From a virus: DNA of 64,000 nucleotides. Of the stretch, positions 2,642 through 54,768 are shown piece by piece (position 1 is the first letter of the stretch; every line of letters starts with the position of its first letter). The notes under the pieces are model-generated. The model was not told the origin of the DNA, ran no database searches, and was given only the letters and a program-made list of their open reading frames with translations. The stretch is from positions 14,309-78,308 of IMG/VR virus record IMGVR_UViG_3300010400_000002; one strand, written 5' to 3'. The position numbers and the translations under genes were made by a program.

Positions 2642-3475
2642 ATGGCAACTAACACAAAAGGTCTGGGGCAGAAAGCCAAAAACGCCGCTGCCGCCTCCGA
2701 CGATGAAACAATCGTAATCTCTTGGGTTGAGAACCAGTACTCAAAATTTGCCGGAAACCACACTTTACGCGCTTACCGCGATCCTGTGGAACGGCATAAA
2801 CTGATTGAACTGCGTGACCCCACTACCGCTACCAAAGAAGAGCCGTTAGGACAGAAAAAGCCTTACGTCATTCTTGGTGGCAAAACCATGAAACTGTACA
2901 TATCCAAGAACCCTTGGCACATGGCAGTTTACAAATTCATCATCGGTAACACCGAAGAGGAAGGACAGTGGCGTGGTCACCCCCGTTTCAACCCGGGCAA
3001 GAAGATTTTCACTATTGAAAACGTCACCGAAAAGGCTAAGAAAAATAACCTGAATCGCAAGCAGATTCGTGCATTGCAGACGAAAGTCGAGACAATGAAC
3101 CAAGATGCACTCATGCAGTTCGGGTTACTGTTTGGCTTCGACGGTAAGGAACTATCTTACGATGATGTGCTCGACGGTATCGAGGCTATCATTGAGACTC
3201 CGGCTGACAATAGCGAAAGTTTCTTCACTTGCGCAAACGTGAAAGAGGCTATCGAGAATCCAGACTTCGACTATATTGTGTTAGTTGCTGTTTTGAAGCA
3301 TAAGAAGGTGTTTATCTCGAATGATGGTGTATACAAGTACAATGGTGCTACCATCGCCGTCACCGACGATCAACTCGTAAAGTGGCTGAAGGATAACTCT
3401 ACCGTCTATATGACGCTGAAAGAAAAATACCTGGCGCAGACCAAGGTGGAAGAGCCTGACCCTGCTAAAGAATGA
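2642..3475 (+). CDS. conserved virion-module protein downstream of MCP
   Basis: 277 aa; C-terminal KKVFISNDGVYKYNGATIAVTDDQLVKWLKD resembles the crAss-like protein that follows MCP. Confidence 0.55.
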   Translation: MATNTKGLGQKAKNAAAASDDETIVISWVENQYSKFAGNHTLRAYRDPVERHKLIELRDPTTATKEEPLGQKKPYVILGGKTMKLYISKNPWHMAVYKFIIGNTEEEGQWRGHPRFNPGKKIFTIENVTEKAKKNNLNRKQIRALQTKVETMNQDALMQFGLLFGFDGKELSYDDVLDGIEAIIETPADNSESFFTCANVKEAIENPDFDYIVLVAVLKHKKVFISNDGVYKYNGATIAVTDDQLVKWLKDNSTVYMTLKEKYLAQTKVEEPDPAKE

Positions 3476-4146
3476 CGTGGCAACAGATTGCAGATAATGT
3501 GAATCGTAAGCTGGTTCAGTTTGCCTCCCCTCCTGTATTACCTGCGGAGATGGTGGGTTTACTGAATGAGGCTTACGATGCACTATTGACACAGTGGTGG
3601 CAGATGACTTTCGAAAGAGACGAGTTTGCTATCCAGTTGCTCACGCCGCTGAAGCAAGGTCCAATCTCCCCCACTTTAACAAGCGCCAATCACATTTCTA
3701 CGTTCGAAATTGATACGACGGTATTCCCAGGTGGATTAAGAGCAATTGCCTCCTTTCGTGGATATTTCAAGCAGTCATGCAGTGGGCTGTCAGCATGGAG
3801 GATGATCGAGTTTCTGTCAGACAATGACCTATCAGACCTCGAAAATCCATTGCGAATGCCTACCAATGACTTTCCACGCTATCGTATGTGGTTCAACACT
3901 ACTTCCTCAAAGAAGAAAGTGTCAATCTATTACGATGGGGATGCTCCGACCACTACTGAACTGTTTTATTACCGGCAGCAAACCATCCTCACTTCCATAA
4001 CTGGAAGCCCGGAGGTGGACCAAACAGGACACCGGCTGATAGTGAACAAAGCGGTAGCTATACAGTCAGGCACCAACGAGGATCAGCGTGAAGAGATATT
4101 TGAACGTGAAACCAACAAAGATTTACAAGTGGAGAATGCCTCATAA
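3472..4146 (+). CDS. putative head-tail adaptor/ring protein
   Basis: 224 aa; N-terminal helical pair (MVGLLNEAYDALL) and C-terminal ELFYYRQ...HRLIVNKAV fit P22 gp4-like adaptors. Confidence 0.55.
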   Translation: MTWQQIADNVNRKLVQFASPPVLPAEMVGLLNEAYDALLTQWWQMTFERDEFAIQLLTPLKQGPISPTLTSANHISTFEIDTTVFPGGLRAIASFRGYFKQSCSGLSAWRMIEFLSDNDLSDLENPLRMPTNDFPRYRMWFNTTSSKKKVSIYYDGDAPTTTELFYYRQQTILTSITGSPEVDQTGHRLIVNKAVAIQSGTNEDQREEIFERETNKDLQVENAS

Positions 4147-12405: not shown

Positions 12406-13737
12406 ATGCCAGATTTTGCTTTGTATGATTCTTTAAATGTTGCTCCTCACTTCGATGTGAGGCGGCGCGATGCTATGGCAAACCTGACTATTGCCAAGCA
12501 GATGAAAGATGATGCCATTGCACAGATGCAGGAGCGCATGAAAGCAATGGCATCAATAAGCGATGCACTCAATGAAACTACCGATGCAGAGAAAACATTT
12601 CTTGATCCCGATGCAGAAAGATTGAAGGCAAAAGAAAATGAGATCAGGAGAAAGAATATCATTGAACCATTACAATCAAATAATAATGATGCGCTGATGT
12701 TTGAGATGAGCGGAGGTGATGCGTTCAAAAAAAAATATCACCGTGAGTTGGTTGGTAGTGAAGAATTCAGGAATGGTGTAGAGAATGCACAGAACTATAA
12801 GTTAGGAGTAGCAGCTACTATGAAAGGAGAAATCCTTTCTCCTGTGGAAGTGGAATTCCCGGGTGGGACAAAACAAACTGTTCCGTGGCATGACGCTGTT
12901 GACCTCTACAATCAGAAGGTGATTAAAAAACTTCCTTTCAAGTCCAGTGCGCCACTTGCTGAATTCGATCCGCTTGACTTCATGAAATTTGAAATCCCTG
13001 ATGCTGACATGAAGCACAAAGGATTTGTGGGACTGAAGTATCTCGCTGATCGGATACAGGCAGGAAATCCGAAACTCAACCTAACTGATGAGCAGGCGAT
13101 GGAGCAGGCGAAGTTGTATCAGAATAAAGATGTGCAGGGTGCTTCTATGTTTACGTGGGGAAGGAGGTTGCCACACAGTTCGGGATTAAGTTCCTTCTAT
13201 GCAAAGCAGGGTGAGCAGCAGCAAAATACATTGCAACGCTATCAGTATTTAAAGCAGGGAATAAAAACCAATCCTGCATTGATAGGACAGATTGTGATGA
13301 ATCAACCATATAACGGAGGTATCATTACCGGCTTTAAAATTCATCCACAAGGTGTTCCCATTAAAGCAATAGGAACAAATAAAATGTTCACGCCATCCAG
13401 CCCAATTGCCTTGATAGAATACACTACTAAAAATAAACATGGAAATTTCATAAAAGAACAAGACGAGATACGATTAACAAAGGAGAATGATTATGGTTTC
13501 CAGTTGTTCAACAAACTCGCAAACATTAATCGTGAAGGAACAGCGCAGTTCGTAAATCCTGAAGAACTGAATGCTATCTACCAAAGTGATCCTGAATATT
13601 TTGGTGGTGGAAGTACACCGCAGCAAACAGCAACAAAATCAAATGCTCAATATACAGCCACAATGCCTGATGGCTCATTAATTTATTCTCTTGATGGTCA
13701 AAGTTGGGTAGATGAAAAAGGAAATCCTGTACAATAA
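12406..13737 (+). CDS. internal virion (cargo) protein 2
   Basis: 443 aa helical protein between two cargo-like genes; the next gene overlaps its stop codon. Confidence 0.45.
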   Translation: MPDFALYDSLNVAPHFDVRRRDAMANLTIAKQMKDDAIAQMQERMKAMASISDALNETTDAEKTFLDPDAERLKAKENEIRRKNIIEPLQSNNNDALMFEMSGGDAFKKKYHRELVGSEEFRNGVENAQNYKLGVAATMKGEILSPVEVEFPGGTKQTVPWHDAVDLYNQKVIKKLPFKSSAPLAEFDPLDFMKFEIPDADMKHKGFVGLKYLADRIQAGNPKLNLTDEQAMEQAKLYQNKDVQGASMFTWGRRLPHSSGLSSFYAKQGEQQQNTLQRYQYLKQGIKTNPALIGQIVMNQPYNGGIITGFKIHPQGVPIKAIGTNKMFTPSSPIALIEYTTKNKHGNFIKEQDEIRLTKENDYGFQLFNKLANINREGTAQFVNPEELNAIYQSDPEYFGGGSTPQQTATKSNAQYTATMPDGSLIYSLDGQSWVDEKGNPVQ

Positions 13738-16700
13738 TGCCAAATGGACAAGATATAAAATTACCAAAGGGAGCGACACTTGTTACTTCGCCTCCTGTGT
13801 CCGGCATTAAATTACCGAAAGGTGCAACGCTTATAAATAATAAATCCGATGAATCACAAGCGAAAGTGCCGCAAGTGCAAGAAGAAAAAAATGGTGTAAA
13901 TGCGCAACCAACAGACGCTACGGCAGCGAATAGCACTACGGAAGTACCGCAAAAAGAAAATAACAGCATTCCAAAAAATTTGGACAATCACATTAAGGCG
14001 CTTCAAAATGTTAAACAGAATATTAGCATCTACTCGCAATCAATTCCAAAGAATGCTCCATTAACATTACCTACCAAAGAACAAGAGGCGCAGATAGAAC
14101 CTGCAATTGTAGCAAGCGGAGGAAGAAATGCTACAATAGAGGATGATGGAAATATTATTGACTATAGTAAGCCAAACCAAATTACTCAGTGGGCACAATC
14201 GCAACTTGAAAAATTAAATGCGATTCCTGCATTTGATGGAACACCAACCGGAATGGGTATTCCTGATGTTACACCAATTACACCAATTATTGTTGCTGGT
14301 AAAGAAGTTGCAAAATCAATACTTGGAAGTATAAGCGGACTGGGCGAAGGAATTCAGCAGGCAACAAAAGGAAGTGAGGATATAAGAATACCATCTTCAC
14401 AAAATAGATTAGCTGCATTGGAACTTCCGGCAGGATTAGTAAAATCAGGATTTAGCGGATTAAGTTTGGTGGTGCCGCAAGTTGCTGCATTTAATCTTGG
14501 AATACAGGAAGCGGGAAATGTACTTCCTGAAAAATGGGTGCAAGCAGCGATGTCACCCGTGTCAACTATTTTGCAAGAAACACATGGCATAGTAAACTTC
14601 AATGGTAAAATTTATGATCTCGGAAATAGCGATGGAGTAAAGGCTGCTGCTGAATTAACTGACCTTGTATGGGATATATTTTTATTCAAGAAAGCGGAAG
14701 GGTTGGGTAAAAAGATAATTCATAATGAAGTTCTCACTCCTATTGAACAAGCTGAGGCGAATAAGATTATTGATGAAGGTATCAAAGATTTTGGAACACC
14801 ATTCAAGAAAGAAACTTTAAATAAAATTCCTCCTGAATTACCGGATGCAGTAAAGATAAAAGTTGCTCCATTGATTGAGGAGAAAGAAAAAATAATTGAT
14901 GGAAAGCAAAATATTGATGTTGGATTACATCAGTTAGAAGATCAAAAAATTGCTGACATCAATGAACAAATAATTGACCACGTTGCGCCACAACCATTTA
15001 CTGTTTCTGAATTTGAAGTTCACCCAAAAGAAAACATCTCTGCTGTTGTTGGTAAAGATGCTGAATACAAAGGAAAGATCGGTGTGATCGAAAAAGACGA
15101 TGAAGGCAATTTTGTTTTCAATGATGGCAAACGACAACAGATACTTCCGGTAGAAAATAAAGTAGAGCCGACAGAAACAATTTCCGACTCGGGATTGACA
15201 GTAGCCAAAGAGAAAATTTTCAAAGGAGAAATTCCGGTAATCGTGAAGCAAGGTGATGTTGAATATCGTAACAGGAAATACTTTGTATCGTTCACCAATG
15301 ATCCGAAAGATGCAACAGGAACGAGAGTATATGAATATACTAAGGACAAAAATTTACTTCCTGTTGGCAAGCCTAAAAAAGTCAATGAAATAATTCAACA
15401 GTTCAAAGACGAGAATGGAATTGCAACGAAGCAATCACCATTTGAATTTCCGAAGTCAAAAGAAGGAGAACCAACAATCTCAGAGGGTGACGGGACTGCT
15501 AAAGGGGAGTTGCAAGTTCCGTTATCCTCTGAACCTAAAACGACCGACAATGTTTCCGACAAACCACCAGTGTCAGATGAGCGACAACAGGAGTCAGCAC
15601 CAATCGGTGAAGCTCCCAGTGCCGAAACCGTCGTTAGCGAAGAGGTTAAAGCGCCGGAGGAAAAAGTAGATGAAGCCAAACAGTTCGCTATTGACATGGT
15701 GAACAATGATCTTGTTGAGCCAGGGAATACTTCTCGAAGTGAAATGACAATCAAGGGTAGTGGCAAGAAAGCAAGTGCGAACATCGAACCACGACTTGAC
15801 TTAGGAATGAGTAGTGCCGATAAGAACAAAGCTATTGCTGACATCAAAAAAGGAAACTACGAAACAGCACCAGCTAAGAAGTTAATTCAAAAGTTAAGTG
15901 AGTTCCATAAGAATGATGCGTTTGAGATGATACGCGGAACGGGTGGTAATGCTGATCGGTTTATGGAACTGACGCTCGAAGAAATGCGTCATCAGATTGA
16001 GGACATGAAAGAATTCAAGGCAGCCGAAGCCATGAAGGGAATACCGGATGAAGAAGCGCAGGCGATAGAAGATTTTGTCAGACCTTTTGAAGATGAGCAT
16101 GGAAACATTAATTTTGAGGAAGCGATAAAACATCTTGATGAAATCGGATGGACATTACCTGAAGGACATGAGGAAAGAATTTCGGACTTAATCAAAAAAA
16201 TAAAAGATGAAACAGGAAAGCGAGAAGTCCAAAAAGGCGAAGCAAATTCTTCTGGGTCTGTTAGCAGCGAAGCGCCGGAAGGAGTCATCAAAGATGAAAA
16301 GCCCCGCACAAGAGAACAAATCCTCCAAGAGTTAGAGCAGGCTAAAGCGGAGCACGCTACCGCAGAGAGTGACTACAACAAAGCCAAAGATGCTCTCGAC
16401 AAAAATCTACAAGGCAAGCAGGGTGATTTACTACAAGGTAATGAGCAGAAGTTGTTTGATGACACTTCTGAAATGAAGTCCAAAGCGGATGCAGCTAAGA
16501 AAACTCTTGACGCTGCAAAAGAAAAACTCGATGCCGCACAGAAGTTGGCTGATGATAATTTACCAGGGCAACAGGAGATACTTAGTCTTTCACATGGACT
16601 CACCCCTGAGCAAATAAATGAAAGTGCCCAATTCGTTGTTAAGTTTGAACGGGATGAATTACCTACCGATATAAAACTTGCAAAAGAACAACAAGAAAAA

Positions 16701-19700
16701 GCGTTTGGTCGCGATAAAGAATCTTACAATGAAAAAATTAAGTATTTAGAAGATCGGCTTAAATATCTATCTGATCAGAAAAATTTTGATGCTGAGGTCG
16801 AGAAAATAAAAAGCAAGTATGATCAACCAACTTCCTTAGAACACGAAGCTAAGAATCTCGCTGATAAAATTCGCGGACTGAAAGGAAAACCACTAATGGT
16901 TCGTGATTCTGTCACTGGTGAAATGGTGGAAGTAAAATCAAAATCATTCTTTGATGAAGCCATTGACATAGTTGCTAACCTCATTGAGAAAGCAGGCAAG
17001 GAACTGAATCACACAAAACTTGGTGATGCAATTGTCGCGGGACTAAAGCATATCCGCTCTTCTGAGTGGTACAAGAAACTTAAATTCTCCGAAAAGCAGG
17101 GTGTGATAAAAGAATTCAAAGCGATGTTTGCTCCGATGCAGGAAGCATTAGTGAAGGGAAGGAAGGAAGATTTGAAGAAGCGAACAGAGAACACTACCGG
17201 ACAGCGTGACCTTTCTGAAAAAATTAAGACCACGGCGCGACGCATATTCCGACAGAATGAAATTTCATTCAAGCGTGGTGTGGGCGCAGAGAGAAAGGGA
17301 CAGTCAATACAGCGCAAAGAATTCGCTGCGGCAATCGCTGACCTACTAAAGTCAAACCAGCTAAAAGGTGAAATAACTCCAGCACAATTCAAGACTATTA
17401 TTAAAGCCGCTACCAACATTGGCACAGAAGCGCAACTCAATCGTTTCCTCACATTTTCCGACCGTGTTATCAGTGATGCTAACTATGCACAGCGCATATC
17501 TGACATCTCTGCCACAAGAAAGAAACTTGGCTCACGCGATTATGGTACGTTGACAAATACTGTCAAGTCATTTCTTGCTATCAACCCGCGCAGTGTTCCT
17601 CTCGACAAACTGGATTTGTATGAGCGTGTGATAAATGGGCTTGCACAGAAGCGTGTTCCGTCAGCAACAGAGCTGGTACGCAACTACAATGAGATTGCAG
17701 ATGCAGTGCAGAGCAAAACATTTCCGTCTGAAGGTAAGTCGTATAATGATATTGAAGATGGACTTGCCGAACTCACACAGGCGAAATTTGATAATGTTGA
17801 TGACTACATAAAAGCACGTCAGCAATTAGCAGCACTCAATCGGGGGTTACAGAAACTAATTAATGAGGGAAGCATAACACCGGAAGAATCGGCACAGGCG
17901 CAAGACCTGTTTATGCAGACTGGAAAAACATTGGAAGAGCATGCAGCAGAAAATCTTCTTGCCGAAGAAGTGAAACTGAAAGATGAAATGATTACAGAAG
18001 CGAAAATGATTGCTTCAAATCAGGAGCTTGCCGATTTCACGCCGGAGCAGAAGAAATACATTGAGAAGTTTCAGTCAATTCCTGAATCACTACTAAAGCA
18101 AATGCCGATTGAAGATGTAGATGCTTATGTGAAGGTGATGGATGGACTGGATGATGGGTTGGTGAATAGTAAAATGTATGAGTTGCTGAATAAAGCAGGG
18201 CTGATGAAAGCCACCAACGAAATCAAAGGACAGGTGCTCGATCAGGCGATCAACAAAACCGGAAAGGCAATAAAGGTATTAGGACAGAAAATAGAAGTAC
18301 CTAATCCGAAGAAACTATTTGGTGATCTAACTACAAGAGGGAAATATTTCTGGGATGAATACTTTGGACTGGGTGGGCAGAAGCCGATATGGAAAACAAT
18401 AGTAAGCCCAATCCTTCGCGCCTACAATCACATGCAGTTGGATGCAATTAGGTTGCGGAGTGAATATCATACAGCGTCCAAAAAAGTAAACAGTGTTGAT
18501 AAAGCCAAAATATCTATTGTGCTGAATCAACTCGACTACCAAAGTAACCCTATTCGTCTTGAAGATAAAACGGTGCATGACTTTGCCGATCTTCCAAATC
18601 AGGAGAAAGATTATTTCAAAGTGATAAACAATCCTGACAATGCGATGCTCGGACTCAACAATGTCCGTATCGCCGATCAGAAGATTGCGCGTGAAGCGTA
18701 TACTGAATTACCAAAGGACTCTTATGGCAACATTGACACGCAGAAGGCACTCGATGAATTGAATGGTGATCCTGACATAAAAGCGTTACTCGATACTGTT
18801 CAAAAAATAAAAGATGCGCTGGAAGATAAGAACCGTGTAGCAACGGAAAAGCGTGGTGATGTATATGTACCGCGCGAAAATTATCATCCTCGCATGGTGC
18901 GACAGTCACGACCTCGTGGAGGGCTATTCGATACCGAACCACTTACGGCGGAACAGGCAGTAGAATCATTACTCGGTAAGCCTGTAAATAATGTGACAGC
19001 AAGGGCAGGCTCTACTCATGCACGTACCGACTACCGCTACTATGTTTCTTACAACCTTGACCATGTAATCGGTAACCACATTCAGGATGTGTTGCGTGAT
19101 TACCATTTGGGTGATCCCATGAAGCAAAGGTTGGGAGCACTTGGCTCGCTGATGCTATCACAGACGGGAGGAAAGCAAGCAACAGCGAGGGCACTGTATG
19201 AAGCGATGAAAGATGGTGTGGTGACTTCATTTCATCTCGACAATAAAGTTGCGAATGATGATATGAAGCTGATTGAAAAAGTTCTCTCCACTACACGAAC
19301 ACTTGCACTTGCGCGACCTACTCGCTTGATAAATGACTTCGCCTCCAACTTCGTGAGAGAAACATTATCAAGCGGTCAGATTAATCCGGGACGACACGAA
19401 GCATATAAGCAACTGCTCGACAATTCATATTCATCATTGATGTTTAAAGCGGGCAAGTACGCTGAAGAACGGTATGAAACAAATCAGGGTGCAATGCGTA
19501 AACTCGCTGATGCTATCATTCCGTTTGCTGATACACCGGTTACTCGTGCTGCATTTGCCGGAGCATTCGACACGAGATTCGAAACACTCACAGGAGAGCG
19601 ATTTAATCCAGACGAGTATGTTAAATCAGAAGCGTATCGTGATAAATTCGCTGCACAGATTGATGATGCCTCATCCCATGCTGAAGCCTCCATGTCGCAG

Positions 19701-20843
19701 AAGTTCAATGCTCAAACACCTTTTGCGGCTGCTTCAAAAACGAAATGGACACCACTTGGTTCGCCGAAAGAAAAATATAGTCTGATCTCACAGGCGCTTG
19801 GATTTCTGAATTCATGGAATGCAAATGATACTCGTAATCTTCTTACTAAAGCAAAACAATTGTATGATGGCTCAGGAACGGGGCGTATGGATGCGCTCAG
19901 AGATATTTCTGGTGTGTTAGCATCTAACTATGTTTACACCACGACTGCTATTCTTGTAGCTAACATCATCAAAAATGGAATTGCTTCAGCACTCGATGAT
20001 GATGAAAAAGGATGGTGGCAGGAGTTGGGTGATGATTTTGAAAAAGGATTTTCAGACACTTTCAATACAGAGACGCAAGGTGAAGTTGGTGTAGGTACGG
20101 TGCTGTCACTTGCTATGGGGCGTTACGGAAATTTGTTCCGTGGAATGTATGCACTCATATCAGGTATTCTCGCCAACGGTCTTAAGGATAATCCGGCAGC
20201 ACTGTCGAAACTCGATGCTGTTAATGGTGGCATGACGCGCACATTCTATGCTGATCCTATAAAGAGCGATAGTCGAACAGTGGATATGTTGCGACTTATC
20301 CCGGCTATGGGAGAAATAGCTGCACAAGTTTATCAAGGTAGTTCCTCAGCAATAGCCTTAACAAACAAGGTGGCTAATGATGGCTTTGAATCTCTCAACG
20401 CTTCTGATAAAGATTTATGGACTACGATTCAGGCTACAAATTATCTGATCGGCGCCGCTTTTCCAAATCCTATCTCTCCTGAGTTTCATACGGAGTCACG
20501 ACGCATTGCATCTGCTGTCATTCAGGATGAAAAGAATGATCGTATGAGAGCAATCGGTGTGTACGACATTTATGAAAAGGCAAAAGCCAATGAACTTATT
20601 CCACCCATTGCGCCAAATACCGTTACTATTGATGGAGAGAAACGAACACTGACTTACAAGGAACATGAAGAATTTAATGACCTTGTGATGAAGTACCGGA
20701 AAGAATGGGTTGATGACCTTCGCAAAAATGATCCTGAATTTAAGAAGGCACCACAGAAAGAAAAGATCAAAATGATTAAATCAGCTTACGCGAGTGGATA
20801 TAATGAGGCTAAAGATGAATTTTTTAACACAGAAGAAAAATAA
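13737..20843 (+). CDS. giant internal virion/ejection protein (2368 aa)
   Basis: Duplicated N-terminal IKLPKGATL, long acidic/coiled-coil middle, hydrophobic C-terminal segments; no catalytic motif recognised. Confidence 0.6.
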   Translation: MPNGQDIKLPKGATLVTSPPVSGIKLPKGATLINNKSDESQAKVPQVQEEKNGVNAQPTDATAANSTTEVPQKENNSIPKNLDNHIKALQNVKQNISIYSQSIPKNAPLTLPTKEQEAQIEPAIVASGGRNATIEDDGNIIDYSKPNQITQWAQSQLEKLNAIPAFDGTPTGMGIPDVTPITPIIVAGKEVAKSILGSISGLGEGIQQATKGSEDIRIPSSQNRLAALELPAGLVKSGFSGLSLVVPQVAAFNLGIQEAGNVLPEKWVQAAMSPVSTILQETHGIVNFNGKIYDLGNSDGVKAAAELTDLVWDIFLFKKAEGLGKKIIHNEVLTPIEQAEANKIIDEGIKDFGTPFKKETLNKIPPELPDAVKIKVAPLIEEKEKIIDGKQNIDVGLHQLEDQKIADINEQIIDHVAPQPFTVSEFEVHPKENISAVVGKDAEYKGKIGVIEKDDEGNFVFNDGKRQQILPVENKVEPTETISDSGLTVAKEKIFKGEIPVIVKQGDVEYRNRKYFVSFTNDPKDATGTRVYEYTKDKNLLPVGKPKKVNEIIQQFKDENGIATKQSPFEFPKSKEGEPTISEGDGTAKGELQVPLSSEPKTTDNVSDKPPVSDERQQESAPIGEAPSAETVVSEEVKAPEEKVDEAKQFAIDMVNNDLVEPGNTSRSEMTIKGSGKKASANIEPRLDLGMSSADKNKAIADIKKGNYETAPAKKLIQKLSEFHKNDAFEMIRGTGGNADRFMELTLEEMRHQIEDMKEFKAAEAMKGIPDEEAQAIEDFVRPFEDEHGNINFEEAIKHLDEIGWTLPEGHEERISDLIKKIKDETGKREVQKGEANSSGSVSSEAPEGVIKDEKPRTREQILQELEQAKAEHATAESDYNKAKDALDKNLQGKQGDLLQGNEQKLFDDTSEMKSKADAAKKTLDAAKEKLDAAQKLADDNLPGQQEILSLSHGLTPEQINESAQFVVKFERDELPTDIKLAKEQQEKAFGRDKESYNEKIKYLEDRLKYLSDQKNFDAEVEKIKSKYDQPTSLEHEAKNLADKIRGLKGKPLMVRDSVTGEMVEVKSKSFFDEAIDIVANLIEKAGKELNHTKLGDAIVAGLKHIRSSEWYKKLKFSEKQGVIKEFKAMFAPMQEALVKGRKEDLKKRTENTTGQRDLSEKIKTTARRIFRQNEISFKRGVGAERKGQSIQRKEFAAAIADLLKSNQLKGEITPAQFKTIIKAATNIGTEAQLNRFLTFSDRVISDANYAQRISDISATRKKLGSRDYGTLTNTVKSFLAINPRSVPLDKLDLYERVINGLAQKRVPSATELVRNYNEIADAVQSKTFPSEGKSYNDIEDGLAELTQAKFDNVDDYIKARQQLAALNRGLQKLINEGSITPEESAQAQDLFMQTGKTLEEHAAENLLAEEVKLKDEMITEAKMIASNQELADFTPEQKKYIEKFQSIPESLLKQMPIEDVDAYVKVMDGLDDGLVNSKMYELLNKAGLMKATNEIKGQVLDQAINKTGKAIKVLGQKIEVPNPKKLFGDLTTRGKYFWDEYFGLGGQKPIWKTIVSPILRAYNHMQLDAIRLRSEYHTASKKVNSVDKAKISIVLNQLDYQSNPIRLEDKTVHDFADLPNQEKDYFKVINNPDNAMLGLNNVRIADQKIAREAYTELPKDSYGNIDTQKALDELNGDPDIKALLDTVQKIKDALEDKNRVATEKRGDVYVPRENYHPRMVRQSRPRGGLFDTEPLTAEQAVESLLGKPVNNVTARAGSTHARTDYRYYVSYNLDHVIGNHIQDVLRDYHLGDPMKQRLGALGSLMLSQTGGKQATARALYEAMKDGVVTSFHLDNKVANDDMKLIEKVLSTTRTLALARPTRLINDFASNFVRETLSSGQINPGRHEAYKQLLDNSYSSLMFKAGKYAEERYETNQGAMRKLADAIIPFADTPVTRAAFAGAFDTRFETLTGERFNPDEYVKSEAYRDKFAAQIDDASSHAEASMSQKFNAQTPFAAASKTKWTPLGSPKEKYSLISQALGFLNSWNANDTRNLLTKAKQLYDGSGTGRMDALRDISGVLASNYVYTTTAILVANIIKNGIASALDDDEKGWWQELGDDFEKGFSDTFNTETQGEVGVGTVLSLAMGRYGNLFRGMYALISGILANGLKDNPAALSKLDAVNGGMTRTFYADPIKSDSRTVDMLRLIPAMGEIAAQVYQGSSSAIALTNKVANDGFESLNASDKDLWTTIQATNYLIGAAFPNPISPEFHTESRRIASAVIQDEKNDRMRAIGVYDIYEKAKANELIPPIAPNTVTIDGEKRTLTYKEHEEFNDLVMKYRKEWVDDLRKNDPEFKKAPQKEKIKMIKSAYASGYNEAKDEFFNTEEK

Positions 20844-33207: not shown

Positions 33208-33236
33208 CGGGGTGGCAAATCAGCACCCCGTTTTTT
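33208..33236 (+). terminator. intrinsic terminator of the late operon
   Basis: CGGGGTG-GCAAATCAG-CACCCCG followed by TTTTTT. Confidence 0.8.
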
Positions 33237-33300: not shown

Positions 33301-33333
33301 AAAAAAAATGGATGATGTTTAGTCACCCATTTT
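33301..33333 (-). terminator. intrinsic terminator closing the RAMP/array transcript
   Basis: Minus strand AAAATGGGTGA-CTAAACA-TCATCCATTTT-TTTT; the stem is complete (one G-U) only on the minus strand. Confidence 0.75.
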
Positions 33334-33340
33334 AAACAGT

Positions 33341-33935
33341 ACCATAGCGGTGCGAACCCAACCATGCCAGCGCCTAACAGAACCATATCCAACAATACCG
33401 AGCCTTACACGATCACACCATACCGGCTTTCCAGCCCGTTCCATGCCATACCTCTACTTACATCAGCCAACCATACAGGACTAAAGCAAGCCATTGCTAA
33501 CCTATCCCGACCATACCGACTCTTTCGAGTCCGTACCCAACCGAACCATACCGAACACAAGCGAACCGCGCCGACGCCGAAGCTAACAATACCATTCCCG
33601 ATACTACCGCGCTCGACATAAGCTGACCAATCCATACCAAACCGGAGATAATTTTCCCGTTCCTTACCATACTCAACCGAACATTACCTAAGCCAGCCGT
33701 ACCCTGCATAACCGAAGCTGACCGAACCGACTGAAATTAATCAGTCCGTACCACGCCGTACACTACCATTCCAAACAAAATTGAACCGTATCCCGCCATG
33801 CCGAATCGAACCTTACCACAACACACGGAACACCACCATGCACTACCATACCGGCTTTTAAAAAGCCCGCACCAAACCAAAACTCAGCTAACCGGACAAA
33901 ACCGAACTCCACATAACCCCGCCCCGGCAAACCGG
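33341..33935 (-). ncRNA. array of six GGY-NN pentamer tracts separated by hairpins (putative gapped guide RNAs, VIPR-like)
   Basis: 103 in-phase pentamers by hand count, 55 with exact GGY and most others one mismatch away; tracts 33871-33935, 33750-33854, 33661-33730, 33535-33645, 33440-33519, 33341-33426; five junction hairpins. Confidence 0.85.
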
Positions 33936-33938
33936 AAT

Positions 33939-34565
33939 TTAATCTTCAATGACATCATAATTCTTAATAGCAAATCTTCCATATGACGGTCTGAAATCTC
34001 CAACGCCGCACAATCTTCCTGCCTGTACCAACGTGTCAATAAACAATGCCACATCAATATACTCAGGCAACTGAATCATGAATTGACATTTGCAAGTCCA
34101 TCCTGATTTTAATGCAGGACGAGTGCGATTAATGCCTGACCGCTGAATAACAACACGCCGACGATCTTCATAATCCCATTCTTTCTTTCCTAAAGAGCAA
34201 AGTGGAGTTAATGAGATTACTCCTGCTTTGAATAAGTCCATTGCCGACTTACGAGGCGAGCGAGGGTCTTGTTTGAACTTTGATGCAGCGATACAACTCA
34301 TGCGAAAATATTCACCCGGGATACAGAGAAATCCTTTATCATCCCGATAGACGTAGCTTTCGAGATCATCAGTTTTTTTAGCAGCAGAATTTTTTTTCGC
34401 TTTCGCTTTTTCATCTACTGCCTCTGCATTCCATCGGTGAAACAGCATGTCGGCTGTACCTTGAAATGTTACTTCAATCATGAACGGTTCTGAATGTTCA
34501 ATGACTTTCTTTGCGCCGTTTGTTGGCTCACTCACATTCTTAGCGAGTGTTTTTGCTGTACTCAT
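33939..34565 (-). CDS. solo RAMP/Cas7-like protein (Vipr-like)
   Basis: RAMP beta1 (MIEVTFQGTADMLFH), motif-II-like GFLCIPGEYFRMSCIAA, RTRP, C-terminal Gly-rich loop AGRLCGVGDFRPSYGRF. Confidence 0.8.
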   Translation of the reverse strand: MSTAKTLAKNVSEPTNGAKKVIEHSEPFMIEVTFQGTADMLFHRWNAEAVDEKAKAKKNSAAKKTDDLESYVYRDDKGFLCIPGEYFRMSCIAASKFKQDPRSPRKSAMDLFKAGVISLTPLCSLGKKEWDYEDRRRVVIQRSGINRTRPALKSGWTCKCQFMIQLPEYIDVALFIDTLVQAGRLCGVGDFRPSYGRFAIKNYDVIED

Positions 34566-34827: not shown

Positions 34828-35424
34828 TTATATTTCAATTGAGTTATTCACTTCATTGCCTAATAAATCCCATCCCTCATATTCATAATTAGGGAACATT
34901 CCTTCACGTTCCCTTGCGAATAACTCCAATCGTTTAGGCTCTTCGAAAACCCTGTCAGTGACCTTCATTATCAATTCGCGGAAGTAATGCGGTTTCTGTG
35001 AGTGCTTACCAACTTTCTGTTCGTGAAGATCACCGAAGTCAAATTCCGAAGCATAGAAATTACAGGTTTGTTCTCTGAAGGCAGTAACATTTCCTTTAAT
35101 TCCTAATAGCAGATGTTCGCATTGACCACGAAACCAATATCCCATTCCCTGACTCATTACCTTTCGCCACGTCATCATTGTCTTATACTTAAATCCCCAC
35201 GCAGCCATTACCTCAAAGGCTTCCGGCAATAGCGGAACGGTTGCCCCTAAGAACAACACCGAATTTTTCTCAGAAGGAATTTGCATTGCCTTGATATCAT
35301 CAAGCGGCATCGTTTCATATTTTGTATGAGCGCCACTTCCTTCCGGCTGATCTCCATTAGTTCGCCCTGTCTTTTTATTCTCGTAAGACCACGGCGGATC
35401 TGCGTAAATGACATTGTACTTCAT
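34828..35424 (-). CDS. MT-A70 family N6-adenine methyltransferase
   Basis: VIYADPPW, WGFKYKT, GMGYWFRGQCEHLLLG, HSQKP, LELFAR. Confidence 0.9.
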   Translation of the reverse strand: MKYNVIYADPPWSYENKKTGRTNGDQPEGSGAHTKYETMPLDDIKAMQIPSEKNSVLFLGATVPLLPEAFEVMAAWGFKYKTMMTWRKVMSQGMGYWFRGQCEHLLLGIKGNVTAFREQTCNFYASEFDFGDLHEQKVGKHSQKPHYFRELIMKVTDRVFEEPKRLELFAREREGMFPNYEYEGWDLLGNEVNNSIEI

Positions 35425-35640: not shown

Positions 35641-36378
35641 CTAACACACTTTCTTCTGAACATGAATACCATAAGAGTCCGTTATTTTATGGCATGGCTT
35701 ACATAATGTTAATCCGTTATCCACATCCCATAATAACTTACAGGAAAGAGCATCAATAGTGTCCTTCAAATTGAATTGATAGATAATATTTGCTAAACTT
35801 ATTTTATGATGGCATTCCAACCTAACATTATTTTTACCACAGTTTTGGCAAGTGAAATTATCTCTCTTATAAACACTCAATCTCCATTGATTATATTCAA
35901 CCAATCTTCTTATCTTATCTTTAATAATATTAAACCCTTTTCCCTTCCCATATCTCCAATGATTCGTTCCGCTAATTCTAAGCCTCGCTTCTAAAGTATA
36001 CTTTTTGTTTCGGGTGAACGCCTTTCCTTTCATAAAGGCACTGTGCGCTGGTCTCTGTCTACCTAATTTAAAAACATGATAGCATTGTTGAGAACAGAAT
36101 TTTCTTTTTAGTGATTTGGAAAATTTAATATCTCTATTACAGATGGAGCATTTTGATTTCACCTTTCCTTTTCCAAAATCATTAGTCATACATATGACGT
36201 CACAATATATCCGCTTACATTTCTTTTTACAGTACCTACAATTATTTAGAATAGTTATCTTTCTTTTTCTTCTTTTTCTTATTCTTGAGCATGTTTCCGA
36301 ACAAGTTGTTCTGTTATTAAGTTGACATGGAAATACTTTGAATGGTGCATTACAAACAATACAGTTCTTAGTAATCAT
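35641..36378 (-). CDS. HNH endonuclease with Zn-ribbon repeats
   Basis: Start MITKNC; CxxC repeats; WRLSVYKRDNFTCQNCG...LECHH...NGLTLCKPCH. Confidence 0.85.
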   Translation of the reverse strand: MITKNCIVCNAPFKVFPCQLNNRTTCSETCSRIRKRRKRKITILNNCRYCKKKCKRIYCDVICMTNDFGKGKVKSKCSICNRDIKFSKSLKRKFCSQQCYHVFKLGRQRPAHSAFMKGKAFTRNKKYTLEARLRISGTNHWRYGKGKGFNIIKDKIRRLVEYNQWRLSVYKRDNFTCQNCGKNNVRLECHHKISLANIIYQFNLKDTIDALSCKLLWDVDNGLTLCKPCHKITDSYGIHVQKKVC

Positions 36379-36379
36379 C

Positions 36380-36505
36380 TTAAAAAAGATAGCCGCTGGC
36401 AATGGTGGCTTATCAACACAATCCGTAGGGAAGGAGTTGCACCAAAGCAGCGGCGTTTTTTGTTGAAGATGTTCATGGATTGAATTGATAAGCATTGCAA
36501 ATTTA
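36380..36505 (-). promoter_or_regulatory. promoter box and structured leader of the HNH gene
   Basis: TAAATTTG (36498-36505); interleaved pairings GCTTATCAA/TTGATAAGC and GCCGCTG/CAGCGGC. Confidence 0.5.
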
Positions 36506-39039: not shown

Positions 39040-40146
39040 TTAAAAAGGAAATTCTTGTGCTTCATCAGTTTCTTTAACAAGGGGCACTAATCTGCTCGGC
39101 GGTGCATAATCATCTTCTGTCGGTAATCCCTTTTCAGGAAATCTACTCCAGTCACAATTATAGGTTTTTTCAGTCAATGGATTCCAATTGTTGCGATCAA
39201 CAAATCCAACATTGCCTTTTATCATCTGCAATAACACAGGTGAATCTTTCATCGTCGGAAATCCACCGGTTTCGGTTTCTTTTATCTTGCGCACATGAAG
39301 CTGTGTCACACGCCAATCCAATTCATGGTTGGTTAATCGGTGAATAGTGAGAAAATCATCTGCCTTGCTTGCGAACTTCGTTCCTCCCTCGGTGTCGGCT
39401 TTATTCGGAGCAACAGCATAACCATTATCTAATTTCCTGAACGCTCCGGTAACAGCATGGCAGTTAAGATAAATGCAACAATCATTTTTGCGGGTGAAGT
39501 GTTGAAAGGCTAAACATGCTTCGTAATGGTATGAATGTGAATTGCTGTTCGTGGCTTCATGCAGTGAATTGTATGGGTCAATCAGGATTCCATCAATTTT
39601 TACTTTCTGCATTTTTCTTAACGAGATGTCAAGGATATTTCTATAGGTATAAGCCTCGTCATTGCGCATGAGAAAAAAATGTTCACGTATAAATTGCCTG
39701 CTCTTTTTATCATCCTCTTCAGGAATATATTTTATCCAATTAGCATTTAGGTACTCAACACAATGGCGGGTGAAACTTCCCTTTGAATTTTCTCCGGTAA
39801 AAACAATCCACTTCCACCCATATTTTTTTGCCGTTAACAGAATCATGAACCATAGTAGCGTTGACTTACCTACATTGTCATATCCATTGATTACATTGAA
39901 GTGGGCACGTTTAAACCGGAAGTTAGAATCAATGCTTGGTGATCCTGTACTAAGCCCCATTTGAAAGGTATCATCACGAATTGAGTCAAGGTATTTATCT
40001 ACTCCATCAAGACTAAAGATCGCTTCATCATCAATTTCCTTTGGGGTGATTACCTCCTCTGGAATATGGTTTACATACTTAGGCTTTATCCCGGGTTGAG
40101 ATATTGTGACCGGACGAAAGATTATTCGCTTGCTGGTGCTTTCCAT
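39040..40146 (-). CDS. DnaB/SF4-like replicative helicase
   Basis: Walker A GYDNVGKST, GEN, ILIDPYN, KADDFLTIHR, VRKIK. Confidence 0.85.
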   Translation of the reverse strand: MESTSKRIIFRPVTISQPGIKPKYVNHIPEEVITPKEIDDEAIFSLDGVDKYLDSIRDDTFQMGLSTGSPSIDSNFRFKRAHFNVINGYDNVGKSTLLWFMILLTAKKYGWKWIVFTGENSKGSFTRHCVEYLNANWIKYIPEEDDKKSRQFIREHFFLMRNDEAYTYRNILDISLRKMQKVKIDGILIDPYNSLHEATNSNSHSYHYEACLAFQHFTRKNDCCIYLNCHAVTGAFRKLDNGYAVAPNKADTEGGTKFASKADDFLTIHRLTNHELDWRVTQLHVRKIKETETGGFPTMKDSPVLLQMIKGNVGFVDRNNWNPLTEKTYNCDWSRFPEKGLPTEDDYAPPSRLVPLVKETDEAQEFPF

Positions 40147-40442: not shown

Positions 40443-41296
40443 CGTGGTTTATCCTCCTCGGCTATTTGTGGTGCTCCATGAATCATTTCGTTCATTTGAT
40501 GGTATCGCTGCGTGGCTGAAGTAATCTGGGTTTCATAGTGAATGCCGTTCGTGGTAAGCGGTCTTGTTTCTTTTGGGGACTCCTCCTCCCAGCACCTTTG
40601 ATTAATCCATGTCTGTAGGTGCTTCCATTCCGGAATAAATTTTCCAGGAATTGCAGAATCTTGTTGGCGTCGGAAAATTTGGTTTTTTAAAGCTGGCTCA
40701 AGTAGCGGTAGGGCTGTTTCCCAATCCGCATGCTTTTTCTTGAAGTTGTCAAACTCGGTTTTATTGCCGCGTTTATTTCCTTCGTATAATTTTCGGAAAC
40801 TATCAAACACTATTTCACTATTATCTAATCTATTCTTATCTAATCTATTCTTATGTTGCCGTTCCGTTGTCCCTTCCGTTGCAGTTCCGTTGGCAACGGA
40901 ATTTTCAGTATTATTATTTTCCGTTGAATTATATTGTTTTTTTCTTTTTTCGGCACTTTTTTCTCCTGCCTTCTTTGCAGACTCCCATGTTTTCAATCTC
41001 TTTTGAAGTCCTCTTGAAGTGAATTTGCCCCGAAACTCCTGAAACAAATCTATACGGATTGCATCCCGATACCATGTTAAAAAACGCGGTTCGTCCTTAC
41101 ATCCAATAGTTCCACAAAGCATCTGTAAATCGCCGTCTGTGCTGCTCCAAGAATAGTCCTCTTGGTTGCGCAGAACTTCAATCACATCCCAATAAATTCC
41201 CTTTGCCCAGTGGGTATGTATTTGCACCATCTTGAGGAGTTTTAGATCCCTCCCTGCGTTTGATTCGTGCCTGAACCAGTATGAGTCTGCAGCCAT
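40439..41296 (-). CDS. putative replication initiator (DUF4373/Lin1244-like N-terminus)
   Basis: YWFRHESNA..D.KL...GIYW.VIE.L N-terminus; FDSFRKLY and HLQTWINQRCWEEE C-terminus. Confidence 0.7.
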   Translation of the reverse strand: MAADSYWFRHESNAGRDLKLLKMVQIHTHWAKGIYWDVIEVLRNQEDYSWSSTDGDLQMLCGTIGCKDEPRFLTWYRDAIRIDLFQEFRGKFTSRGLQKRLKTWESAKKAGEKSAEKRKKQYNSTENNNTENSVANGTATEGTTERQHKNRLDKNRLDNSEIVFDSFRKLYEGNKRGNKTEFDNFKKKHADWETALPLLEPALKNQIFRRQQDSAIPGKFIPEWKHLQTWINQRCWEEESPKETRPLTTNGIHYETQITSATQRYHQMNEMIHGAPQIAEEDKPR

Positions 41297-53411: not shown

Positions 53412-54272
53412 TTAATCCTTCGTCTGCTCCTTTTCTAATTCTGCACAACGAATAATATCTTTCATCGCCACTTCATTTGTTTCATAGAAACGTGGTGGGG
53501 CAACTTCAATCGGTGAAGATGCTCTGTAAATTTGTTGCGCGGCAAATGCCGGGGAGGTTGCACGTTCTAATTCATTACCTTCTTTCCCTGCAAGATGGTT
53601 TATCCATCCGGCGCGACAATGTGTAGTATCACAAGTATGCCATGTGGACATATTTAATTGGTTGCCGTTATCCTGAATGGCTTCCAATAATTTTTGGTGA
53701 ATATTTGGAATAACGGGAACCGGAACGCCTCCGATGTAGATACGATTTGGAATAGATTCTTTTTCCTGTGGTGCATCTTGTTCGACTGGGCGAGCGTTTT
53801 TTAAATCACTGCAACCACTGCAACGACTGCAATCACTGCAACGACTGCAACCACTGCAACGACTGCAATCACTGCAACCACTGCAATCACTGCAACGACT
53901 GCAATCACTGCAACCACTGCAATCACTGCAATCACTGCAACCACTGCAATCACTGCAACGACTGCAATCACTGCAACCACTGCAATCACTGCAACCACTG
54001 CAATCACTGCAACCACTGCAACCACTGCAATCACTGCAACCACTGCAATCACTGCAACCACTGCAATCACTGCAACCACTGCAACGACTGCAATCACTGC
54101 AACGACTGCAATCACTGCAACCACTGCAATCACTGCAATTCCAACAGCCTTTGTTATACTTATTTTCTTTCTCCCAATTCGGATTTACTTCAGCAAATTC
54201 AGGAGAAACCCCATTCACATCTTTATCGGAACGGTCAATAAACTCTGAGTAATCTTTGAAAATTTTTGTCAT
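53412..54272 (-). CDS. Cys-repeat protein with WHTCDTTHCRAGW C-terminal domain
   Basis: Start MTKIFK; 37 x CS(D/G/R); LNMSTWHTCDTTHCRAGW. Confidence 0.7.
   Translation of the reverse strand: MTKIFKDYSEFIDRSDKDVNGVSPEFAEVNPNWEKENKYNKGCWNCSDCSGCSDCSRCSDCSRCSGCSDCSGCSDCSGCSDCSGCSGCSDCSGCSDCSGCSDCSRCSDCSGCSDCSDCSGCSDCSRCSDCSGCSDCSRCSGCSRCSDCSRCSGCSDLKNARPVEQDAPQEKESIPNRIYIGGVPVPVIPNIHQKLLEAIQDNGNQLNMSTWHTCDTTHCRAGWINHLAGKEGNELERATSPAFAAQQIYRASSPIEVAPPRFYETNEVAMKDIIRCAELEKEQTKD
53805..54137 (-). repeat. 9-bp tandem repeat x37, TGCAGT(GAT/GGT/CGT)
   Basis: 333 bp with only three unit variants. Confidence 0.95.
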
Positions 54273-54300
54273 GATGTTTTTTGTTTTTTGGTGGGTGAAA

Positions 54301-54768
54301 TTATTCTGCTGTCTCTTTAACGTAAACTTTGTACCATGCCCCTGACTTCCTCGACTGCACACAGTAGAAAAAACTTCCTTTGATGCTGCGGTAAACTCGA
54401 TGCTTTACTCCATCTTTGGTGGTGAAGTAGTAACCGGTGTCGGTTGCATTCTTGGTAAGGTCCGCTTCGCTCTTGGCTGTGCTGCTGCTTGACTGTACGA
54501 ACTTTTGGTAGTCGGCTTGCTCTTTTACAAGGGACTTGCCCTGGGCTGTCGTTTGCGCGTGAATCCTGCTGCAAAGTAACCAGCTAAGGAGGATGAAGAT
54601 TAATATTTTTGTTTCTGATGGCAACCTGAATTTGGATGGATGGAGAATAGGATCACGTTGCAATCTCTTGAATTTCTCTAATCCTTTTTTCTCCGATTCT
54701 GCGCGTCGGTTATTCCATGCCTTCATTTTTTCATGATGGATTTCGTACTCTGATTTTTCATTTCTCAT
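54301..54768 (-). CDS. membrane-anchored/secreted protein
   Basis: Hydrophobic ILIFILLSWLLC; C-terminal VYRSIKGSFFY..QSRKSG.WYKVY. Confidence 0.55.
   Translation of the reverse strand: MRNEKSEYEIHHEKMKAWNNRRAESEKKGLEKFKRLQRDPILHPSKFRLPSETKILIFILLSWLLCSRIHAQTTAQGKSLVKEQADYQKFVQSSSSTAKSEADLTKNATDTGYYFTTKDGVKHRVYRSIKGSFFYCVQSRKSGAWYKVYVKETAE

Follow-up and report, generated by a model that had tools for sequence, protein, structure and literature searches.

Why would a phage keep some 600 bases of non-coding DNA in which a three-base pattern returns at every fifth base, and what do the variable bases between these patterns say? The question is raised by a complete 78-kb virus that has terminal repeats and encodes a major capsid protein of the crAss type (IMG/VR record IMGVR_UViG_3300010400_000002), of which we analysed 64,000 nucleotides (positions 14,309 to 78,308 of the record; hereafter the window). 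The only sequencing run that contains the locus is one soil metagenome DNA run; no RNA run is listed. We describe the anatomy of the array, the homology of the protein encoded beside it, and the matches of its guides to targets. We consider it about 90% probable that positions 33301-34565 (minus strand) form a stand-alone VIPR (Viral Interference Programmable Repeat) locus: a vipr gene and approximately 8 vrRNAs, with vrRNA1 aimed at DUF2188. The mechanism is already published; the new elements are the crAss-like host phage, the architecture of the array, and the targets.

The array occupies positions 33336-33935, between the terminator of the structural block (33208-33236) and the minus-strand stop codon at 33939. 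It is non-coding and has a period of 5 bases, in which each minus-strand unit consists of GGY followed by NN. Autocorrelation in the array region reaches 0.40-0.42 at lags that are multiples of 5, versus about 0.2 at lags 2-3. In a scan of the 64-kb window, the sustained period-5 signal is restricted to 33326-33935; isolated bins exceed the threshold near 26601, 40801-40826 (a tandem repeat), and 43826. Across 105 array units, the first and second positions are each G in 76%, the third is a pyrimidine in 90%, and the fourth and fifth are variable and near-uniform. The sequence-only reading had singled out 33871-33935, where it listed 13 dinucleotides. These stand exactly as listed, one every 5 bases; on the plus strand, the segment runs ACC-AA ACC-AA AAC-TC AGC-TA ACC-GG ACA-AA ACC-GA ACT-CC ACA-TA ACC-CC GCC-CC GGC-AA ACC-GG. 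No CRISPR repeat-spacer array was found, as tandem-repeat and period scans show the 5-base array only. Rfam gave no matches in the window or in 13 related loci, and no hammerhead was detected between tracts. BLASTN of the array region and the 12 kb around it returned no match among 50,697 phage records.

Elsewhere in the window, an 18-nt (or 63-nt) tandem repeat of the CACTGCAAC type (53807-54139; 18 copies, 94% matches) sits inside a minus-strand ORF (53412-54362) and is presumably a repetitive protein segment. At 40821-40892, the replication block contains two adjoining short tandem repeats (15 nt x 2.3 and 11 nt x 3.4), close to a primase/helicase-like gene (39040-40146); they may be iterons or an origin. 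The structural block of this phage with a crAss-type capsid also contains an ORF of 2368 aa (13737-20843, plus strand); its position and size would suit the virion RNA polymerase that crAss-like phages typically carry.

The array is composed of about 8 guides, each of 6-8 up to approximately 20 units, all on the minus strand. vrRNA1 begins 3 bases past the vipr stop codon with 13 guide units (33871-33935). In these units, NN is the complement of the first two bases of each of the last 13 DUF2188 codons. The 3' tail of vrRNA1 (33851-33870) consists of a conserved Y-(A/G)C-GG unit and then a short hairpin that CGG closes, with a fold dG of -11.8 kcal/mol (z = -3.0). vrRNA2 (33727-33850) carries about 20 guide units (NN 33753-33849) and a hairpin tail at 33727-33749 (dG -11.8, z = -3.6); vrRNA3 (33642-33726) carries about 13 (NN 33664-33725) and the weakest tail, at 33642-33660 (dG -6.8, z = -1.6). 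The vrRNA4a guide, of 14 units (33579-33645), ends in a tail-less junction, a GGCG slip with an extra base at 33575. The segment 33516-33578 comprises this junction, the 8 units of vrRNA4b (NN 33538-33574), and a hairpin tail at 33516-33534 (dG -12.4, z = -4.5). vrRNA5 (33423-33515) has 15 guide units (NN 33443-33514) and a hairpin tail at 33423-33439 (dG -8.8, z = -2.6). The array closes with vrRNA6a and vrRNA6b (33336-33422), of 10 and 7 units, which are divided by a second GGCG-type slip of 1 base at 33371.

How are the guides delimited? Five short hairpin tails share ACGG...CGG flanks (dG -6.8 to -12.4, z -1.6 to -4.5), and two junctions have no hairpin. The one-base phase slips fall in GGCG units (on the plus strand, GCCGA-C-GCCGA at 33570-33580 and GCCAG-C-GCCTA at 33366-33376) and look like guide boundaries that do without a hairpin tail. 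The slip at 33575 is supported as a real boundary, since the target match of vrRNA4a ends exactly there. A 14th unit of vrRNA1 (NN = GC) is the sole mismatch to the DUF2188 target. The equivalent unit, AC, terminates the hairpin-tailed vrRNA2, vrRNA3, vrRNA4b, and vrRNA5, and also vrRNA6b; we therefore assign the 14th unit to the tail and not to the guide, which explains the single mismatch. Downstream of the last guide, a hairpin followed by U8 (33301-33333, minus strand; dG -13.3 kcal/mol, z = -2.7, with no shuffle folding as well) is a likely intrinsic terminator and likely closes the vipr-vrRNA transcription unit. On the opposite side, the locus is bounded by the predicted intrinsic terminator of the converging plus-strand structural block (33208-33236), read as a GC-rich inverted repeat and then a T run.

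VIPR systems are the subject of three 2026 bioRxiv preprints (10.64898/2026.04.26.720920, 10.64898/2026.04.26.720927, and 10.64898/2026.10.15.759431). In these systems, a minimal RAMP protein polymerises on a vrRNA made of GGY/NN repeats and a 3' tail; GGY is flipped into pockets of the protein, while the NN pairs bind double-stranded DNA such that every third target base, usually the wobble base, is skipped. This "1-nt skip rule" was shown experimentally (10.64898/2026.04.26.720920), and cryo-EM structures are available (10.64898/2026.04.26.720927). Binding silences transcription of competing mobile elements, and the system of Escherichia phage SUSP1 needs Vap1 in natural infection (VIPR preprints). 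The sequence-only reading had proposed a code in which 2 of every 5 bases give codon positions 1-2 and the wobble is ignored; this is the published skip rule, and a vipr gene lies next to the array.

That gene (33939-34565, minus strand) encodes a minimal RAMP (Cas7-like) protein of 208 aa, named from its homology to Vipr. A profile of 15 homologues (A1) searched against PDB with hmmsearch retrieves 36pp_D, "SUSP1 Vipr protein", at E = 7e-11 over residues 60-191; the single sequence reaches SUSP1 Vipr at E = 3e-5 and 27 bits, a remote similarity. The G-loop GVGDFRPSYGRF aligns to GVGDWRPRFGRF of SUSP1, and R149-P150 of the thumb align to R138-P139. In SUSP1, D177, W178, R179, and R138 read the repeat bases G1, G2, and Y3 (10.64898/2026.04.26.720927). 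They pair with D190, F191, R192, and R149, so that position 191 is still aromatic; D190, R192, R149, and P150 are invariant across the 15 homologues. SUSP1 H17, K33, R39, and K82 have no mappable counterpart in the alignment with the 208-aa protein. An AF2 model (pLDDT 78) finds Csm3/Cas7 backbone subunits as its best Foldseek matches (E ~2e-7, probability 1.0, TM ~0.53). The protein belongs to PHROG family phrog_4652, which carries no function annotation, and has no matches in Pfam or PADLOC. Alignment and model identify it as a Vipr homologue with a predicted Cas7/Csm3-like fold, in which the residues that read G1, G2, and Y3 appear to be kept; by analogy with its family, it would polymerise on the vrRNA repeats. 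We assign the locus to VIPR because its adjacent protein is a homologue of SUSP1 Vipr that retains these repeat-reading residues.

Is the gene accompanied by a vap? No neighbour cluster that could represent an accessory vap is common to the window and 19 related loci (BLASTP 1e-5). Stand-alone vipr genes are also in the list of the VIPR discovery paper, and thus an absent vap does not exclude membership. Directly upstream of vipr in the window lie genes for an MT-A70 DNA methyltransferase and an HNH-endonuclease-like protein (34828-35424 and 35641-36495, minus strand); these are probably not VIPR accessories, since they are not conserved beside vipr in relatives.

The related loci share the arrangement of gene and repeats. 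GGYNN tracts flank vipr on its own strand in 18 of the 19 IMG/VR homologue loci, lying upstream, downstream, or on both sides; the nineteenth (L013) has a distant period-5 signal only. The NN content of these loci is unrelated to that of the window, and there is no cross-targeting in either direction at ≥17/18 over 9 units. Locus L004, like L002, L003, and L005, places its tracts upstream of vipr and separates them by four elements of approximately 60 nt (L004: 3380-3420, 3640-3700, 3755-3810, and 3865-3925), which are made of two hairpins around a CTTCC/CCTCC motif. These elements have no Rfam matches, and no hammerhead was detected in them; they could be a different tail or a processing element. 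L004 also contains an uninterrupted tract of 47 units (3418-3652; present in L002 and L003 as well), as against the 9-16 repeats of published systems. The decoding of this tract contains ..AGW.VKTTQRYAHLS.., which, we presume, resembles the catalytic-tyrosine region or C-terminal motif of tyrosine recombinases. Exact IMG/VR scans with 15 and 12 units gave no matches and did not confirm the integrase-like reading.

What does the first guide of the window match? The gapped pattern AA.AA.TC.TA.GG.AA.GA.CC.TA.CC.CC.AA.GG has 26 fixed bases. Over one genome per GTDB species (596 Gb, both strands), about 3e-4 matches are expected; the scan returned 31 exact matches. Each of the 31 lies in frame at the end of a DUF2188-type ORF, mostly of 73-86 aa, where it covers the final 13 codons (KNSYGNDPYPPKG) immediately before the stop. 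Two further exact matches come from IMG/VR, both in complete proviruses and both at DUF2188 C-termini. The sequence-only reading had recognised in the tract a DUF2188 C-terminal signature, K-N-S-Y-G-N-D-P-Y-P-P-K-G, and had proposed this search; at every match, the signature forms the last 13 codons before the stop. When checked against PF09954/DUF2188, 5 of 5 targets score 86-95 bits (cut-off 22) over model positions 1-62 of 62. Tract 1 is thereby confirmed as the first guide of a VIPR array that matches the conserved last 13 codons of DUF2188 exactly. The 33 exact sites represent 30 distinct 38-mers, which differ at the skipped wobble bases only; by passing over them, a single guide fits 30 or more synonymous variants from several phyla.

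Controls agree with this specificity. The reversed gapped pattern has no matches in 401 genomes, and guides with shuffled units reach at most 20/28 on the two proviruses, versus 27/28 observed. In 401 sampled Bacteroidota genomes, the site occurs with ≤3 mismatches in only 3, as expected for an accessory gene. There is no self-target: within the 64-kb window of the 78-kb record, the best self matches of the guides are 60-79%, with none reaching 80% of NN positions. These self matches lie inside or slightly over the shuffled-guide range: compared with the null maximum, they are 20 versus 19 for vrRNA1 and 21 versus 20 for vrRNA3 in the same window. On the two DUF2188 proviruses and the retrieved loci, no other guide reaches 80%.

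A second guide has an exact match of its own. Metagenome contigs scanned with 10 units (20 bases) of vrRNA4a yielded 2 matches (L062 and L063), both of which extend to 28/28 over 14 units and stop exactly at the 1-base slip. Agreement at the 8 bases outside the 20-base query has a chance probability of about 1.5e-5, and vrRNA4b does not prolong the match (4/18). The two contigs are approximately 99% identical around the site, so we count them as one independent target. The site is in frame and wobble-aligned at codons 226-239 (DYIIRLARYCNMKG) of genes at L062:543-1760 (minus strand) and L063:916-2079 (plus strand). These encode proteins of approximately 390-405 aa with a BT4734-like primase domain (PF08800), plus DUF6965 in L062. 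A D5_N/DUF5906/Pox_D5 primase-helicase adjoins the target gene, and the contigs have 32-35% GC. The target is probably a mobile-element replication module; it is consistent with a Bacteroidota host without showing one. Homologues of the target protein number zero in 401 Bacteroidota genomes at E ≤ 1e-30, and phage records hold only weak relatives. Exact IMG/VR scans gave no matches for vrRNA2 (12 and 10 units), vrRNA4a (12 units), and vrRNA5 (10 units).

How might the system work? Extrapolating from the published family, Vipr would assemble into a filament on the vrRNA, bind DNA in an R-loop triplex, and silence transcription. One protomer would bind each GGY and flip three bases out, and the NN pairs would in this way be presented for pairing with two of every three bases of the DNA target. 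In vrRNA1, the 13 NN pairs would engage codon positions 1 and 2 of the invariant motif, and the wobble bases would be passed over. If the locus behaves like SUSP1 VIPR, a bound DUF2188 gene would no longer be transcribed, nor would the genes downstream of it in operons that it leads.

What would a phage gain if it silenced DUF2188? The sequence-only reading had inferred such silencing and had taken it as a hint that these loci act against phages or are part of a competitor. The neighbourhoods of the matches, which the same reading had proposed to inspect, fit the guess: two lie in lambdoid-type proviruses, and others by CBASS, bSEFIR, or CapH. In provirus G001, one of the two complete lambdoid-type proviruses with an exact target in IMG/VR, the DUF2188 gene (phrog_3220) is part of the early region, flanked by an Ant antirepressor, an HNH/DUF968 gene, a Holliday-junction resolvase (phrog_190), and a Q-like antiterminator. 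In cellular genomes, the neighbours differ from locus to locus, with mobile-element and defence functions overrepresented; among the recurring genes are those for Bro-N, DUF968, and Cro/CI-type HTH proteins. These settings favour a role in competition, in which DUF2188 is targeted because temperate phages residing in the host, or other mobile elements, carry it. Such a role agrees with the published target spectrum of VIPR and with vrRNA4a of the same array, which matches a primase-helicase module typical of mobile elements. Against this role, a small early-region gene of unassigned function is no obvious essential target. The two proviruses, moreover, come from high-GC hosts: their GC content is 59-60% versus 42% for the phage, and we conclude that they are not from its host. 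They are also matched by no other guide of the array. We put the odds on this role at about even.

The first half of the guess leads to an anti-defence role, in which DUF2188 is a conserved small leader gene of inducible defence operons and the downstream CBASS, bSEFIR, or Thoeris-type genes would be silenced by a Vipr filament that forms a roadblock on the 3' end of DUF2188. PADLOC annotation of the neighbourhoods provides examples. In a Flavobacteriaceae locus with an exact 26/26 target (L045, 937-4955), DUF2188 lies 170 nt upstream of a co-directional CBASS operon of cyclase, E2, phospholipase, and cyclase (E = 2e-126, 6e-50, 7e-97, and 4e-104). In L032 (1204-3638), it lies 7 nt upstream of a co-directional CBASS phospholipase (1e-90), and in L020 (2392-4151) and L023 (5285-7032), 66-75 nt upstream of a co-directional bSEFIR gene (1e-95). 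capH-like regulators are among the neighbours in 3 cases. In the literature, DUF2188 is placed in CapH/CapP-controlled operons, beside a CBASS operon, and as a putative Thoeris effector, where the link to defence is a prediction. Set against these examples, a recognised downstream defence gene is found at a minority of the 31 loci, DUF2188 is without a demonstrated function, and the published VIPR targets are competing mobile elements. In addition, silencing of transcription after infection would leave ready-made defence proteins in place. crAss-like phages are usually lytic, which makes an anti-defence use plausible. On balance, we regard this role as possible but doubtful. A separate observation is that many exact-target copies of DUF2188 have a short co-directional gene within 100 nt; in Methylococcales and Aeromonas, this partner is 78-87 aa long.

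The guides could also act on RNA, with vrRNA1 serving as an antisense guide on the 3' end of the DUF2188 mRNA. Both vrRNA1 and vrRNA4a would pair with the coding strand and hence with mRNA, and cryo-EM shows that Vipr-vrRNA can pair with single-stranded RNA (10.64898/2026.04.26.720927). Yet 2 of 2 guides would fall on the coding strand by chance with p = 0.25, and on RNA the filament mostly stalls, as the third strand of the triplex must be DNA (10.64898/2026.04.26.720927). Other VIPRs have natural targets on both strands, and either strand can be used for silencing (10.64898/2026.04.26.720920). Action at the RNA level thus seems improbable to us. Far less credible still is a degenerate pentanucleotide satellite or G-quadruplex spacer whose agreement with DUF2188 is accidental. 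Two-layer quadruplexes could in principle form from GG at every fifth base, and the region does lie between converging transcription units, but coincidence is refuted by the 33 exact 26-base matches, all to one protein motif, where approximately 3e-4 were expected; by the independent 28/28 coding match of vrRNA4a; and by the homology of the adjacent gene to Vipr. Before this homology was found, a TRAP-like or CsrA-like protein sponge, Rho-binding C-rich RNA, G-quadruplex arrays, primase sites or an origin, and telomere-like repeats were also entertained. Translation in 5-base "codons" was excluded, as one unit, AAacc, stands for both K and N, and Y would be written TAA.

A VIPR array with a first guide aimed at DUF2188 has several implications. 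The noncontiguous VIPR code, published in 2026, was recovered by a reader without tools, which means that the signal is readable from sequence alone. The locus places VIPR in soil crAss-like phages, in the form of a stand-alone vipr gene with an array that is hairpin-tailed, partly tail-less, and equipped with long guides. It supplies two exact natural targets, of which DUF2188 is the more interesting: a guide against the most conserved codons of this family is independent, evolution-derived evidence that DUF2188 matters to phages. A bolder proposal, which we advance tentatively and hold to be rather unlikely, is that VIPR serves as a programmable counter-defence, in which a lytic crAss-like phage carries a guide against the DUF2188 genes that head CBASS, bSEFIR, Thoeris-type, and CapH/CapP operons. 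If this were true, one guide could shut down a whole class of immune loci via a transcriptional roadblock. It would extend VIPR from conflict among mobile elements to RNA-guided anti-immunity, and DUF2188 could then be tested as a leader or regulator that defence operons have in common.

The locus can be compared with three known kinds of machinery. TRAP-type proteins resemble it in that their subunits read a conserved trinucleotide every 5 bases. TRAP itself, however, is a ring of unrelated fold that regulates the RNA of its own operon and presents no spacer bases for pairing; a TRAP-type reading was dropped once the Vipr homology was found. The likeness to the backbone of class 1 CRISPR systems (Cas7/Csm3) is closer. 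The predicted fold is the same, with an RRM core, G-loop, and thumb (Foldseek probability 1.0), and both systems rely on a protein filament that coats the guide RNA and flips out bases at regular intervals, here as deduced from homology. In contrast to class 1 CRISPR, the locus has no CRISPR repeats, other cas genes, or adaptation machinery; guide and target have periods of 5 and 3, not 6 and 6, and only 2 of every 5 guide bases pair.

The closest relatives are the type II VIPRs of Escherichia phage SUSP1 and a Pseudomonas fulva prophage. Shared with them are a vipr RAMP gene flanked by GGY/NN repeat RNAs, most of which here have a putative structured 3' tail, one base skipped per unit with the skips on the wobble of conserved coding motifs, the lack of a self-target (here in the 64-kb window), and a G-loop D-aromatic-R and thumb R-P that are kept. 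The differences lie in host, accessory gene, tails, guide length, and targets. The phage is crAss-like and from soil, whereas the three preprints mention neither crAss nor Bacteroid*. Unlike in SUSP1, no conserved vap stands beside vipr, and the tails are hairpins of 16-23 nt flanked by ACGG...CGG, with no SUSP1-type pseudoknot seen. Unlike in published VIPRs, two junctions dispense with the hairpin and show only a 1-base GGCG slip. Guides range from 6-8 to approximately 20 units here and up to 47 in relatives, versus 9-16 in published systems, and the DUF2188 and BT4734-like primase targets are absent from the three preprints. The 1-nt skip rule is obeyed: vrRNA1 matches 26/26 at 33 sites and vrRNA4a matches 28/28, with every skip on codon position 3.
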